Notes under the pieces: model-generated
Databases searched by the model: none
What the model saw: the letters and a program-made list of their open reading frames with translations, nothing else
Told to the model about the DNA's origin: nothing
DNA from: a virus
Taxonomy: Duplodnaviria; Heunggongvirae; Uroviricota; Caudoviricetes
DNA: 4,295 bases
Direction: 5' to 3' (one strand)
IMG/VR virus record: IMGVR_UViG_2706794688_000008
Part shown: piece by piece, positions 26-4,295 of the stretch
Position numbering within the stretch: the stretch's first letter is position 1
Layout of the letters: each line of letters begins with the position of its first letter
Program-made: the position numbers and the translations under genes

Positions 26-214
26 TTAAAAAAAGAACAAATGGTAGTGTCCGCTATTGCCAGTACACCTCAGGGTATAAGGGGTTATGGCCACCGGACT
101 ACCAAACGGCTGCCAGCCCTCTTTCAGTTTATGTGTCAGCTTTTCCGCAAGATCTGACGGCGGCGCCGCCCTGACAACATCATAGTGTTTAAATGCCATG
201 GTTCTTTCCACCAT
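26..214 (-). CDS. small phage protein, DUF1737-like (62 aa from ATG 214, or 57 aa from ATG 199)
   Basis: Complete minus-strand ORF with TAA stop at 26-28. The motif HYDVV...LKEGWQPFGSPV resembles the short DUF1737-type domain found alone or at the N-terminus of NanS-p esterases next to lysis genes in lambdoid phages (recalled, not searched). The second ATG at 199 has GGAAAG 5-6 nt upstream; the first ATG at 214 has no Shine-Dalgarno. Confidence 0.5.
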   Translation of the reverse strand: MVERTMAFKHYDVVRAAPPSDLAEKLTHKLKEGWQPFGSPVAITPYTLRCTGNSGHYHLFFF

Positions 215-459: not shown

Positions 460-795
460 ATGAAGTGGATTGTGATTGATACAGTTATCCAGCCATCATG
501 CGGAATATCTTTTTCAGTCATATGGAGTAAAATAAAATTAATAATCTGGTATCAATCGGATGCTTTCTTACCTCCTGAAAGTATATTTACACTGACTCAC
601 ACAGGCATCATGCTCAATAACAAAGTGCTACCTGTAACCATTTACAACGTAGTACCATTCAATAAAACATTCTGGAATTCAATCAAAAATAGCCAGGAAT
701 GCCCTACAAATACAGATAACGTATTGAATGAATGCTTTAATAACCGTTGCACTCTGCAAATATGTCCTTATGGACTAAAACAACAAAGTCCATAA
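460..795 (+). CDS. hypothetical protein (111 aa), AT-rich cargo ORF antisense to the phage late operon
   Basis: ATG at 460 is preceded by AAGGAA at 449-454 (5-nt spacer); TAA stop at 793-795. A 336-nt open frame in visibly AT-rich DNA. The C-terminus has four Cys (C-x10-C-x4-C-x4-C). 6 of 13 Ile codons are AUA. I recognise no homolog. Confidence 0.4.
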
Positions 796-816: not shown

Positions 817-851
817 AAATCAATATAAACAGCCCCTCCGGAGAGGGGCTG
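817..851 (-). terminator. intrinsic terminator (hairpin plus U-rich tract) for minus-strand transcription
   Basis: Perfect 9-bp stem 830-838 / 843-851 (CAGCCCCTC / GAGGGGCTG) with 4-nt loop. On the minus strand it is followed by TTTATATTGATTTTG; on the plus strand there is no U tract after it. Confidence 0.6.
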
Positions 852-926
852 GAGAGTGGCGCTATGTGCCATTGCATGGTGCCGGGTGCCTCCCGGTGAA
901 TTCAGTACCAGCACCTGAATCCGCGA

Positions 927-1053
927 TTATCCCATATACCTACTCGCTGATTGCCCCTCCGCACAGGGGGATTCACCATGCCAGTTTCTTTTAACAAACT
1001 CCCCGCAAACCAGACAACAGTCAACCGCCTGAATTGTGAAGTATTTAAAAATT
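927..1053 (-). CDS. 3' end of an unresolved minus-strand ORF (start hidden in mask or at 1394/1397)
   Basis: Open frame from the mask edge to a TAA stop at 927-929 (tail ...CCLVCGEFVKRNWHGESPCAEGQSASRYMG), about 75 nt upstream of the minus-strand terminator at 830-851. Competes with the plus-strand ORF starting at 978. Confidence 0.25.
978..1053 (+). CDS. 5' end of an unresolved plus-strand ORF (MPVSFNKLPANQTTVNRLNCEVFKN...), continues into mask
   Basis: ATG at 978 is preceded by AGGGGGA at 965-971 (6-nt spacer), a strong Shine-Dalgarno. The frame is open to the mask edge. Mutually exclusive with the minus-strand model over the same bases. Confidence 0.3.
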
Positions 1054-2240: not shown

Positions 2241-3348
2241 TCATCCGTTCTGGCTGACTAAATCCTGTACTTCCCGAACCGTCTGCTCAAAACGTTCAGT
2301 CTCCAGCTCAACGCCAATTGCACGACGCCCGAGCGCCAGTGCCGCTTTCACTGTCGAACCCAACCCCATGAAAAAATCTGCAATCAGGTCACCCGGACGA
2401 CTGCTAGCGCTGATTATCTGCTGCAGCATTTCTGCCGGTTTTTCGCACGGATGTTTCCCGGGATAGAACTGCACCGGTTTATGCGTCCACACATCGGTAT
2501 ACGGCACCTGCACCGTCACGCCAAAATACCGCCGCAGATGTTTATATTCACTCAGCAGCTCCGCATACTGCCGGTTCAGTGAGGTATACGTATCCACCAG
2601 CTGGTGGTGGAGCTTTTCCAGTTCACCACGCCGATGCTTCTCTTCTGCCACCCGGGCAAACAGCGCCTGTAATTTCAGATAATCGCTTTCATTCGGCAAC
2701 TGCCACTGACCGGCACTGAACCAGTGCGACACCATGTTTTTCTTTCCTGTGGCATCTGCAATCTGTTTTGCCGTTATCCCCAGGGCAGCTCGCGCATCAC
2801 GAAAGTAAGAAATCAGCGGGGCCATCACATGCTGTTTCAGTGCACTGCCCTTCGCCGCATACCCGGCATCTTTCGGACGATACGGCCCCTGATAATGTTC
2901 CGCGAACAGAATGCGCTCTGTGGCGGGGAAATACGCCCGCAGGCTTTCCTTGTTGCATCCGTTCCAGCGTCCGGACGGCTTCGCCCAGATAATATGGTTC
3001 AGCACACTGAAGCGTTCACGCATCATGATTTCGATATCAGATGCCAGGCGATGACCACAGAACAGGTAAAGACTTCCGGCAGGTTTCAGCNNNNNNNNNN
3101 NNNNNNNNNNNNNNNNNNNNNNNNNNNNNNNNNNNNNNNNNNNNNNNNNNNNNNNNNNNNNNNNNNNNNNNNNNNNNNNNNNNNNNNNNNNNNNNNNNNN
3201 NNNNNNNNNNNNNNNNNNNNNNNNNNNNNNNNNNNNNNNNNNNNNNNNNNNNNNNNNNNNNNNNNNNNNNNNNNNNNNNNNNNNNNNNNNNNNNNNNNNN
3301 NNNNNNNNNNNNNNNNNNNNNNNNNNNNNNNNNNNNNNNNNNNNNNNN
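2241..3348 (-). CDS. DNA methyltransferase, beta-class N6-adenine/N4-cytosine type (PF01555-like); N-terminus and start hidden in mask
   Basis: TGA stop at 2241-2243. Visible 283 aa begins LKPAGSLYLFCGH (the segment that follows the DPPY motif) and ends with an FxGxG-type SAM-binding motif (DFFMGLGSTVKAA); this C-terminal motif order is typical of beta-class enzymes. The DPPY motif itself must lie in the masked block. The six-frame start at TTG 3479 is rejected. Confidence 0.8.
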
Positions 3349-3396
3349 AAAGCAGTGGGCCTGAGGTTTGCTTGTGAACCCAACGCATGAGCAGAT

Positions 3397-3427
3397 GGCT
3401 GGTGGGTGCCCCTAACACCCACCAGCC
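3397..3427. repeat. perfect 12-bp GC-rich inverted repeat with 7-nt spacer (stem-loop or operator candidate)
   Basis: GGCTGGTGGGTG at 3397-3408 and its exact reverse complement CACCCACCAGCC at 3416-3427, with loop CCCCTAA. No U tract on either strand, so it is not a terminator. It lies between the 65-aa ORF terminator and the methyltransferase. Confidence 0.6.
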
Positions 3428-3440
3428 GCCCATTTACCAC

Positions 3441-3468
3441 AAATAAAAAAGCCTTCACTGCGGAAGGC
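3441..3468 (-). terminator. intrinsic terminator after the 65-aa ORF
   Basis: 6-bp stem GCCTTC/GAAGGC (3451-3456 / 3463-3468) with 6-nt loop, followed on the minus strand by TTTTTTATTT (3450-3441). It overlaps the ORF's TGA stop at 3455-3457. Confidence 0.55.
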
Positions 3469-3652
3469 GTCTGTAACAACCGAACTGATAGTCTGCCAGA
3501 CCCGCCATAACCAGCTGGGTCAGTATTAACTGGCAGCGTTCGCGTGAAAGGTAAGTATTCTGCGCTATCTCCCCGACTGTCGCCGGTTCGGTAACGCTTA
3601 ATTCATTAAACACCACTCTGGCGGTTTCTGTCATATCCTGCTGTTTTAGCAT
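3455..3652 (-). CDS. hypothetical small protein (65 aa), putative winged-helix DNA-binding fold
   Basis: ATG at 3652 is preceded by AAGGAAAAG; TGA stop at 3455-3457; own terminator. The segment TVGEIAQNTYLSRERCQLILTQLVMAGLADY resembles the helix-turn-helix plus wing of ArsR/MarR-like regulators (pattern judgement only). Confidence 0.5.
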   Translation of the reverse strand: MLKQQDMTETARVVFNELSVTEPATVGEIAQNTYLSRERCQLILTQLVMAGLADYQFGCYRRLPQ

Positions 3653-3770
3653 GTCTTTTCCTTTTCCGGTTAACGTGACACACCAATAACTCTTGTCGAA
3701 AAAGCCAGCAAGCTGAAAGACAGGTATTCACCGCCACCAGCGCGTTTACTGTACTGACGCGATTTCAGTC

Positions 3771-3796
3771 ATAAAAAACCCGCTCGGCGGCGGGTT
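3771..3796 (-). terminator. tR'-like intrinsic terminator downstream of PR'
   Basis: 7-bp stem AACCCGC/GCGGGTT (3777-3783 / 3790-3796) with 6-nt loop, followed on the minus strand by TTTTTTAT (3778-3771). Confidence 0.7.
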
Positions 3797-3837
3797 GTAG
3801 AAACTCTTCTAACGTCAGGCATAAAACGCCCATCGTT
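3771..3837 (-). ncRNA. short 6S-like terminated PR' leader transcript (about 65 nt), predicted
   Basis: Inferred from the predicted PR' start near 3837 and the tR' terminator ending near 3771, by analogy with the lambda 6S RNA. Not supported by any expression data. Confidence 0.35.
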
Positions 3838-3871
3838 ATAACGAATTTACCACAGATTCCGGAAAAATCAA
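3829..3871 (-). promoter_or_regulatory. late promoter PR' with extended -10 and sigma70-dependent pause element (Q engagement region)
   Basis: Minus strand: -35 TTGATT (3871-3866), 16-nt spacer, TGG upstream of -10 TAAATT (3849-3844), 6 nt, then AACGATGGG (3837-3829). Hexamers and spacing match my recollection of lambda PR' (TAAATT, 6 nt, AACGATGGG). It starts 6 nt after the Q stop codon. Confidence 0.7.
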
Positions 3872-3876
3872 CCTTG

Positions 3877-4295
3877 TTACCTAGTTACCTTTTTTAACTG
3901 CCGCTCAGCCCATGCTTCTTCAATATCAAACCGGGTCACCAGCGCATCATAAAATTTCTTAACTGTTTTTTCCCATGACGCGCGTGTTATCTGGTTTGTC
4001 ACCTCGCATATAGCATTAAATGCCTCCGTTGATGGTAGTCTTTCATAGCCACGACCACCACAACGCTGGCAGTCTCTGATAACAGGCATACCACGTTTTA
4101 CCGACTCTTCACGATGAATGGCGACACCACGCCCACGGCAATCCTTACAGGCGGTGGAAACCTCACCCTTTCCGCCACACTCCGGACAGGCAACTTTTAC
4201 CACCTCCCTGACTTTTTTCCATTCTTCCCAGTAAGACGGATACACACCTTTCGTACACTTTGCCCATACCGGCGGCTTACCATCCGGATACTGGA
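3877..4295 (-). CDS. Q: antitermination protein Q, lambda-type (5' end beyond window)
   Basis: TAA stop at 3877-3879. The frame is open upstream of the six-frame GTG start at 4245 to the window edge. The C-terminus (CQRCGGRGYERLP...WEKTVKKFYDALV...KKVTR) aligns by eye with the lambda Q C-terminus (CGRCKGVGYSRMP...WSRTVKPLYDALV...NAVTR), and it has CxxC zinc-finger motifs. PR' follows immediately. Confidence 0.85.
   Translation of the reverse strand, partial: QYPDGKPPVWAKCTKGVYPSYWEEWKKVREVVKVACPECGGKGEVSTACKDCRGRGVAIHREESVKRGMPVIRDCQRCGGRGYERLPSTEAFNAICEVTNQITRASWEKTVKKFYDALVTRFDIEEAWAERQLKKVTR

Follow-up and report, generated by a model that had tools for sequence, protein, structure and literature searches.

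An inverted repeat in a phage late operon as one hairpin of a conserved, structured RNA leader preceding a putative M.EcoGII-type methyltransferase gene

We analyzed a 4,295-nucleotide (nt) stretch of a Caudoviricetes virus (IMG/VR record IMGVR_UViG_2706794688_000008; "the window" is this whole stretch), in which a perfect inverted repeat lies between the gene of a small, 65-aa protein and an adenine methyltransferase gene. With high confidence, the repeat is part of a conserved structured RNA made from the sense strand, as hairpin P1 of a leader of about 137 nt that ends at the methyltransferase AUG. As judged from aligned leaders, six helices (P0, P1, P4, P5, P6 and P7) are maintained by compensatory substitutions, and the leader is a previously undescribed RNA element. 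The explanation that we favor, as the probable one, is that it is a cis-regulatory leader of the methyltransferase gene. An earlier reading of the window, the original prediction, had likened the locus to the controller-protein arrangement of restriction-modification systems; the feature that it picked out is real and non-random, but it was mis-assigned.

The repeat had been called too perfect for chance, and this holds. Its arms, GGCTGGTGGGTG at 3397-3408 and CACCCACCAGCC at 3416-3427, are 12 nt long, 100% complementary and separated by a 7-nt spacer, and by our own arithmetic about 0.002 perfect 12-bp hairpins with a short loop are expected by chance in a 4.3-kb window. Based on a survey of 80 viral contigs encoding an identical 65-aa protein, the perfect repeat is one allele only. 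Most E. coli relatives have CACCTGCCAGCC or CACTCACCAGCC in the 3′ arm; these arms make an imperfect palindrome as DNA, yet they are G·U-paired in the sense-strand RNA.

To compare the locus across relatives we used 34 loci from a protein-family alignment search with one genome per species (Escherichia, Salmonella, Kluyvera, Klebsiella, Citrobacter, Buttiauxella, Mangrovibacter, Mixta, Proteus, Providencia and Plesiomonas) and a divergent set of 69 further viral loci, retrieved with the Plesiomonas methyltransferase. The spacer of about 150 nt that leads to the methyltransferase ATG is better conserved than the 65-aa protein (41-98% identity) in all 34 loci except L102, where the leader is truncated and no methyltransferase lies downstream. 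In L102 (3176-3305, gut Enterobacteriaceae), the match has a 65-aa ORF (open reading frame) truncated at its N-terminus and most of the leader, and a shortened 3′ junction leads into ATG-TAG; it looks like a decayed copy.

Across relatives P1 is conserved as base pairing and not as sequence. Pairs changed on both sides number 7 of 12 in the enteric set and 11 of 12 in the divergent set. Compensatory arms are found in Proteus (GACUGUAAAAGUG/CACCUUUACAGUC), Proteus sp. FME41 (GACAGUGAGGAUG/CAUCCCCGCUGUC) and Plesiomonas (GGCUGGUAAGUG/CAUUUACCAGCC), and the P1 sequences of divergent loci are unrelated, for example GCUGCAGCAUG/CAUGCUGCAGC and GGCGGAGAGGGUG/CACCCCAUCCGCC. In an alignment-free check, all 86 distinct leaders, with 34 different 5′ arms among them, form a 9-15 bp hairpin right after the nearly invariant AAAUGGGC. 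The arms are often unequal, and in most relatives one arm has an extra base and there are G·T mismatches, which breaks the dyad symmetry. The original prediction had proposed compensatory changes as the means of telling an RNA structure from an operator, and the outcome is RNA pairing, not a conserved DNA sequence. The P1/P0 stem does not qualify as an intrinsic terminator, as it is followed by GCGUUGGG, without a U-run.

Single-sequence folds agree that P0 (AUGGGC/GCUCAU) closes P1, with a 4-nt loop on the 3′ side, and that in a second domain the P6/P7 hairpin is enclosed by two helices, P4 (GGUCA/UGAUC), whose end is 1-3 nt short of the AUG, and P5 (AAGC/GCUU). An intrinsic terminator lies 5 nt ahead of the leader, the length of which is near-constant (130-141 nt). 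When 35 leaders are aligned by plain MAFFT, 91% of the cells are paired, compared with 30-46% for slid partners, 14 pairs are doubly changed, and 0 of 500 shuffles match. Realignment with a covariance model, R1 (36 and 56 leaders), gives 94% paired versus 30-44% slid, and 15 doubly changed pairs. For the model-fitted divergent set the values are 85% versus 31-39%, and 32 of 41 pairs are compensatory. RNAalifold independently recovers P0, P1, P4, P5 and P6; on very divergent leaders raw MAFFT with RNAalifold loses P1 through indels, and there we used the model-based alignment and the alignment-free check. P0 is 96-99% paired, with changes from G·U to G-C and between A-U and G-C. P4 and P5 covary from AAGC/GCUU to GGGC/GCCC and GGAC/GUUC, and from GGUCA/UGAUC to GUCAUA/UAUGAC. 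In P7, the divergent set has 15 CG and 15 UA at pair 95-117, and 16 GC and 15 UA at pair 101-113.

The window is masked at 3091-3348, over the methyltransferase start region, and at 1683-1983. Despite this, R1 matches 3435-3345 on the minus strand (51 bits, E 5e-11); its full-length matches in unmasked homologues score 109-159 bits. The alternative offered by the original prediction, an RNA stem-loop in the late transcript, was therefore right in kind and too small in scope, the hairpin being one helix of a leader of about 137 nt. The structure belongs to the sense strand, that is, to RNA, because G·U pairs are frequent there (for example 6-48 GU, 16-34 UG and 62-138 GU), leaving A·C mismatches on the other strand, and because opposite-strand matches of R1 reach just 21 bits. 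No Rfam 15 family was found on the element at gathering score or at E<=10 (window, L003, L089, L094, L104, L119, including a permissive 201-nt scan); the best overlap is a spurious P26 match of 16-24 bits on the wrong strand. Full-text literature searches turned up no account of an RNA motif ahead of prophage methyltransferases.

Among the 69 divergent loci, 51 have the leader by R1; in most the methyltransferase follows it directly, and in a few the leader is 130-170 nt upstream. The end of the leader lies at AUG+3 of the methyltransferase in 56 loci of the enteric type and in 42 leaders of the divergent set; the other nine of these 51 end further upstream of the methyltransferase match, and a Com-like ORF follows some of them. 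The 137-nt leader is present in 1538 of 5426 complete E. coli genomes (28%), frequently as several copies and as many as five, and also in Shiga toxin (Stx) phages, SfV (145 bits) and Klebsiella phage Kpn74 (55 bits). In the genome records listed or inspected it has no annotation of its own. In one subgroup (L283, L285, L287, L294, L303) an ORF of 38-41 aa with CxxC...CxxC lies ahead of the methyltransferase and has its AUG in the last helix of the leader (e.g. L285 1362-1487). The best Pfam match of these ORFs is Zn_ribbon_Com, at 14-19 bits and below the cut-off. The same subgroup has an extra conserved hairpin region between the tR′ terminator and the leader.

The gene that follows the leader encodes a beta-class N6-adenine methyltransferase. 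Unmasked homologues and the length of the coding sequence (CDS) place its ATG about 95 nt downstream of the repeat, so that the CDS does not run through 3397-3427; had it done so, the original prediction would have been undone. The start is fixed to about 5 nt only, because of the masking and a 4-nt length difference from phiP27. The protein has the beta-class order, with an N-terminal DPPY (residues 35-38 of the L003 protein), a central target-recognition domain with a weak helix-turn-helix (HTH) match at 167-195, and FMGLG/FMGSG (FxGxG) near the C-terminus, an order shared with the M.EcoGII/M.EcoGI clade, whose members have about 349 aa. The methyltransferase of phage 1720a-02, which lies behind the same small ORF and leader, shares 94% identity with the visible part of the window enzyme and 95% with the unmasked homologue. 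Murray et al. named the 1720a-02 enzyme as very similar to M.EcoGII (PMC5778455), and on this link rests the putative clade membership of the window enzyme. M.EcoGII, a beta-class enzyme of 349 aa, methylates DNA and RNA at adenines irrespective of their context (PMC5778455), and its domain layout (PMC11551740) fits the Pfam result for the window enzyme. A non-specific activity of the present copy is predicted from the clade.

As the original prediction had it, the methyltransferase is an orphan: no restriction or endonuclease gene is annotated beside it in any homologous record inspected, where its neighbors are tRNAs, stx, iraM or lysis genes. Two methyltransferases from the literature proved to be different from the one studied here. 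The prophage "rRNA methyltransferase" of Gong et al. (PMC10810198) is an MT-A70 enzyme with DPPW, encoded in the early region, and the IS629-disrupted methyltransferase of PMC4587872 is a different gene.

A second, mutually exclusive set of pairings (Px, P2 and, in enterics, Py) appears to exist alongside the six helices and would leave the start region free, although it is less firmly shown. In P2 (UUCGCUCAU/ACAAGCGAA) the 3′ strand of P0 pairs instead with the 5′ strands of P4 and P5. P2 is 75% paired, compared with 21-46% for slid partners, with three Watson-Crick types at pair 45-71 (13 CG, 6 AU and 6 UA, plus 3 UG) and with 24 UA and 8 CG at pair 48-68. As expected of a shared strand, column 68 has two covarying partners, 48 (P2) and 130 (P5). 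Px joins an invariant UGGGC (3432-3428) to the invariant GCCCA (3360-3356) of P6 and is compatible with 46 of 46 diverse leaders; the use of GCCCA by Px would also account for the C·A "mismatch" that is conserved within P6. In enterics the strands so freed can form Py, for which support is weaker. By constrained folding, fold A (P0+P4+P5+P6) and fold B (Px+P2+Py) lie within about 2-11 kcal/mol of each other, the minimum varying with lineage, and the divergent group shows the same split. Bases -2 to -16 from the AUG are paired in fold A (P4, P5), whereas in fold B the AUG and the 8-9 nt 5′ of it are free. A canonical Shine-Dalgarno sequence is absent before the methyltransferase AUG.

We propose that the palindrome acts as the apical hairpin, P1, of a minus-strand leader within a Q-dependent late transcript, and that this leader, ending at the AUG of an M.EcoGII-type gene that lacks a Shine-Dalgarno sequence, would be a cis-acting conformational switch. 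Fold A would occupy the start region, and fold B would re-partner the same segments and free it, setting the translation of the methyltransferase mRNA and possibly its processing or stability too. A non-specific, toxic methylase would thus be made only during lytic late transcription and in limited amount. Tight control is plausible because M.EcoGII, a non-specific enzyme, is deleterious if made constitutively and is not produced in the lysogen (PMC5778455). The same study ascribed its silence in phages to prophage transcriptional silence alone. On the comparative evidence, regulation of methyltransferase expression in cis by the leader RNA is the likelier state of affairs, and exchange between folds A and B as its means is a serious candidate that we put forward tentatively.

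Several observations weigh against this interpretation. Half of the element is masked in the window, and its 3′ part is taken from homologues that are 92-97% identical. The covariation of P4 and P5 in the enteric set comes from few lineages, and in the divergent set it is read from a model-fitted alignment in which these helices are 67-72% paired. Few independent events stand behind the alternative helices. Both strands of Px are invariant, so that no covariation is possible, and there is a single double change (A-U, in Mixta); the invariance could instead come from a protein or a tertiary contact. Py is not kept in Proteus and Providencia. The pairing probability of the start region is 0.58, against 0.50 in a control with shuffled upstream sequence, and is higher than the control in 57 of 81 leaders; in the Klebsiella-type group it is under the control, so that a leader that is off by default is at most a candidate reading. 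Every function given here to the leader, translational switching in either direction included, is one that we infer.

The 65-aa protein (PHROG 331) was described in the original prediction as HTH-like, with its own ribosome-binding site and terminator, and all of these are present. Its AlphaFold (AF2) model is a winged helix, with three helices and a beta-hairpin wing (mean pLDDT, the model's own per-residue confidence score, 91). Foldseek neighbors are generic MarR/IclR/OhrR-type winged-helix domains, none with an E-value <1e-3, and Pfam gives weak winged-helix matches alone (TrmB, MarR_2, HTH_24) and no HTH_3; PADLOC has no C-protein match to it. The family is conserved across Enterobacterales and Plesiomonas. 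In the divergent loci tblastn missed the gene, and profile comparison showed that the 66-90 aa ORFs upstream of the leader are remote homologues (hhalign probability 94.8%, E 5e-8), which indicates that the linkage of small gene and leader is old; in these phages a promoter and a terminator lie between the two. Leader and methyltransferase also occur without the small gene, which is deleted or frameshifted in L150, L161, L188 and L193, and the small gene with P0/P1 precedes an AraC-like gene, without a methyltransferase, in L014 and L085 (phiSTEC1575-Stx2k). The 65-aa gene is a real and anciently linked neighbor, and the linkage is not obligatory. In Klebsiella-phage-like loci (L249, L255, L262, L277, L284 and similar) a small winged-helix homologue lies immediately upstream of a pR′-like promoter and terminator, in the position of Q in lambdoid phages, and no Q-like gene is evident in the 1.5 kb examined.

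That a small protein with a DNA-binding fold adjoins a palindrome and a methyltransferase gene is what had suggested a DNA operator, as in the C-protein control of restriction-modification systems. The likeness does not hold for the fold of the protein, the place of the repeat, the partner gene or the way in which the repeat is conserved. The protein has a winged-helix fold and is not Xre-type, the repeat is found 28 nt past the stop codon of the 65-aa ORF and not upstream of the small gene, homologous records annotate no restriction gene nearby, pairing rather than sequence is kept, with unequal arms in most relatives, and each of the two parts occurs without the other. Moreover, the putative recognition helix 3 (RCQLILTQL) does not vary, although most positions of P1 do, which argues against sequence-specific recognition of the palindrome. 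We regard such an operator as extremely unlikely; from these comparisons the protein is not a C protein, nor does it read the palindrome as DNA in a sequence-specific way. A related explanation places the control on the RNA, where the winged-helix protein, the methyltransferase itself or a Com-like protein would bind the leader and shift its fold. The synteny of the winged-helix gene with leader and methyltransferase even in remote relatives, the Com-like ORFs of one subgroup, and the action of M.EcoGII on RNA (PMC5778455, PMC11551740) are in line with this. We nevertheless consider a protein-responsive operator unlikely, given that leader and methyltransferase persist where the winged-helix gene is lost and that the sequence and loop of P1 vary freely beside an invariant helix 3. 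A metabolite riboswitch, for example for S-adenosylmethionine (SAM) or S-adenosylhomocysteine (SAH), gating translation of the SAM-consuming enzyme would account for the invariant unpaired junction bases, the two exclusive folds and the SAM-dependent enzyme downstream. The leader has no likeness to any Rfam riboswitch and metabolite sensing has no obvious use for a phage late gene, so this appears very unlikely. A more general form of these ideas, a new class of sensing RNA switch for hypermethylase genes, in which the enzyme binds or N6-methylates conserved unpaired adenines of its own leader or the leader is a SAM/SAH riboswitch, possibly with the winged-helix protein as co-factor, is a speculation to which we give little weight. 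If it is true, an enzyme that flips its own leader between folds would provide self-limiting feedback on its toxicity.

The element might instead be an RNase III processing or stability signal, with cleavage separating the winged-helix message from that of the methyltransferase and either leaving protective hairpins or remodeling the downstream fold to open the start site. P0 and P1 stack as a stem of about 19 bp with a 4-nt internal loop on the 3′ side, as in T7 and lambda sites, and the geometry of P0, internal loop (AUCU/AUUC) and P1 is conserved. The element stands just after a terminator in most loci examined, and in loci with a different downstream gene (L014, L085) domain 1 stays with the gene upstream, like a 3′-end element. 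There is no sequence motif to score, however, and a simple processing hairpin leaves unexplained the invariant AAAUGGGC and GGCCCA and the conserved domain 2 that reaches the AUG; in either version we judge RNase III fairly unlikely as the whole explanation. Cleavage is compatible with cis regulation by the leader and could be its trigger. As DNA, the repeat could be a two-way RecBCD site selected to protect or recombine phage DNA, as the allele in the window has the Chi octamer GCTGGTGG in each arm (3398-3405, plus strand; 3426-3419, minus strand). The window contains five octamers versus 0.10 expected (2594-2607, 3398-3405, 3419-3426, 3734-3741), the sense-strand copy is kept in nearly all enteric relatives, and mosaic junctions lie at or beside the hairpin. 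The three sense-strand copies share an orientation that would face RecBCD entering from the cos side, the active one in lambda. Set against this, the plus-strand copy is confined to the perfect-palindrome allele, the hairpin is kept without Chi in Proteus, some Providencia, Plesiomonas and all Klebsiella-type and other divergent leaders, and RNA wobble rules by themselves predict that the G/U-rich 5′ arm should be the better conserved one. Chi is thus at most a lineage-specific secondary feature, and selection for it is highly improbable as the reason for the repeat. A coding role, as a leader peptide from AUGGGC or an N-terminal extension of the methyltransferase, would fit the nearly invariant AUG in AAAUGGGC and the annotation of Kpn74, which extends the CDS over that AUG. 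It has next to no chance of being correct, as 0 of 86 leaders are open and in frame from this AUG to that of the methyltransferase (the frame closes after 3-43 codons), the AUG of AAAUGGGC has no Shine-Dalgarno sequence, and length differences between leaders are not multiples of three. With the frames closed in all 86 leaders, we rejected both the extension and an upstream ORF.

Further observations concern the same features. In Kpn74 (L309, 2363-3562) the deposited CDS is extended 138 nt upstream, from the conserved AUGGGC; since leader frames are closed and length differences are not multiples of three, this is an annotation artefact, likely a mis-annotated start site. An overlapping Chi pair, CCACCAGCTGGTGG (2594-2607), lies within the methyltransferase CDS and encodes HQLV, and the Chi at 3734-3741 is in the 5′ untranslated region (UTR) of the 65-aa ORF. 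The mosaic junctions that coincide with the element are in L084 (PhiR5_1, about 2868-2885, minus strand), L014 (3221-3290) and L085. Homology in PhiR5_1 is lost just behind the 5′ arm of P1, and in L014 and L085 about 15 nt past P0; in the latter two an AraC-like gene takes the place of the methyltransferase.

The genes from Q through the tRNA genes are all on the minus strand, in the order of the start of a lambdoid late operon (Table 1), and the same order is found in the annotated relatives phiP27, Stx2 phages, phage 1720a-02, SfV and an E. coli chromosome. In most related loci examined, whichever gene precedes, a terminator lies immediately 5′ of the leader, with a gap of 5-50 nt; this is tR′ itself in some loci and the small ORF's terminator in others. 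Because an intrinsic terminator precedes it, the leader is reached only by antiterminated polymerase.

Table 1 Features of the window discussed in the text
Feature	Position	Strand	Evidence or detail
Q antiterminator gene, 3′ part	4245..3877	-	PF03589 in the full-length homologue
Late promoter-like site	TTGATT 3871-3866, TAAATT 3849-3844, then AACGAT	-	Read by eye; under the promoter-scan threshold
Late promoter-like site and tR′ region	3770..3871	-	Promoter by eye, terminator by scan
tR′ terminator	3796-3777 and U-run, directly after the Q gene	-	Terminator scan
65-aa winged-helix protein gene, PHROG 331 (function unknown)	3652..3455	-	Shine-Dalgarno AGGA 3662-3659, 6 nt before the ATG
Intrinsic terminator	3441..3468	-	Stem 3468-3451, U-run 3450-3441 TTTTTTATTT; overlaps the stop codon of the 65-aa ORF
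Structured RNA leader, ~137 nt	3299..3435	-	AAAUGGGC (3435) to the methyltransferase AUG (~3299-3304); 3435-3349 visible, rest masked
P0 5′ strand AUGGGC	3428..3433	-	Within nearly invariant AAAUGGGC; pairs with 3392-3387 (P0) or 3360-3356 (Px)
Hairpin P1	3397..3427	-	5′ arm 3427-3416 GGCUGGUGGGUG; loop 3415-3409 UUAGGGG; 3′ arm 3408-3397 CACCCACCAGCC
P0 3′ strand GCUCAU	3387..3392	-	Overlaps the P2 5′ strand UCUGCUCAU (3395-3387)
Segment GUUCACAAGCAAACC	3365..3379	-	5′ strands of P4 (GGUCA-type) and P5 (AAGC), 3′ partners masked; or P2 3′ strand ACAAGCAAA, 3375-3367
5′ strands of P6 (GGCCCAC) and P7 (UGCUUU) hairpin	3349..3361	-	3′ strands masked
Beta-class N6-adenine methyltransferase gene, 352-aa form, putative M.EcoGII/M.EcoGI clade	2241..3304	-	PF01555 2e-44; PADLOC MTase_II 552 bits; start codon masked
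tRNA genes	2200-2125 and 2117-2041	-	ARAGORN for 2125-2200

The promoter at 3871-3844 is one that we take to be lambda pR′-like. With its -10-like AACGAT pause element and tR′ it would yield a terminated RNA of about 70 nt, and weak, sub-threshold Rfam matches to isrK and Trp_leader fall in 3770-3871. Such an RNA would be the counterpart of lambda 6S RNA and StxS (PMC7547250). The tRNA at 2125-2200 has a CAU anticodon and is Met by ARAGORN, and homologous records inconsistently say tRNA-Ile or tRNA-Met; the Ile label presumably refers to an ileZ-type, lysidine-modified tRNA. The ORF at 460-795 (plus strand) matches in position the gene of the anti-adapter IraM in the homologous E. coli locus, and a small ORF at 26-214 (minus strand) precedes what is an esterase gene there. 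This cargo is a typical Stx-phage-like moron, and no stx is visible in the window (with 1683-1983 masked). Downstream of the tRNA/moron position, STnc100 of Rfam has a full-length match at 821-1010 (minus strand; 132 bits, gathering score 47), probably the spot of the convergent prophage anti-sRNAs (antagonists of small RNAs) of Tree et al. (PMC4104026). Those RNAs, considered as candidates for the element, sit downstream of the moron at the STnc100 position and not at the leader, and the text and supplements of that paper do not mention the methylase.

Nearly all adenines are methylated by M.EcoGII-type enzymes, which protect phage DNA against many restriction systems, harm the host when expressed freely and are now widely used as chromatin-footprinting tools. 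Our analysis points to a dedicated post-transcriptional layer in their control, a conserved and apparently bistable leader that is absent from Rfam. In Stx phages this leader is on the same late transcript as the tRNA and stx genes, just upstream of them. The covariance model R1 and a set of defined helices are now in hand, methyltransferase CDS annotations that run over the leader are corrected, and the small winged-helix proteins of PHROG 331, of unknown function, are tied to a leader-methyltransferase module.

The element shares single traits with several known systems. Like C-protein/C-box systems, it has a small protein with a DNA-binding fold encoded beside a modification gene and a palindrome; unlike them, the protein is a winged helix and not Xre-type, the palindrome is downstream and paired as RNA, there is no endonuclease gene, and the setting is a Q-antiterminated late operon. 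With Chi hotspots the allele in the window shares the exact octamer GCTGGTGG in both arms, yet the octamer is not conserved where the hairpin is; probably it arose incidentally in a G/U-rich stem arm or is a secondary use of such an arm. As in translational riboswitches and the cis-regulatory leaders of Rfam, a 5′ UTR abuts the AUG and combines covarying helices, conserved unpaired bases and predicted competing helices; it differs from them in matching no Rfam 15 family at any threshold tried. The lambda cIII mRNA is likewise a phage leader with two exclusive folds, one of which exposes the start site (the folds being predicted here), and the RNase III sites of the lambda N leader and T7 early mRNA have a similar long stem with an internal loop (a candidate reading here). 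The present leader has no sequence relation to these and differs from them in its spread over many genera, its fixed length and its invariant junction bases. The Mu com-mom system is also comparable, in that the start region of a DNA-modification gene on a phage late transcript is locked in an RNA stem that must open for translation, a pairing that is predicted in our case. Neither the window nor the E. coli, SfV and Stx-phage versions have a com gene, and the enzyme is a beta-class methyltransferase and not Mom. A subgroup of relatives does have a Com-like CxxC...CxxC ORF between leader and methyltransferase, with a Com match below the Pfam cut-off, and the RNA is far larger than that of com-mom, with 137 nt, six helices and two predicted alternative folds.

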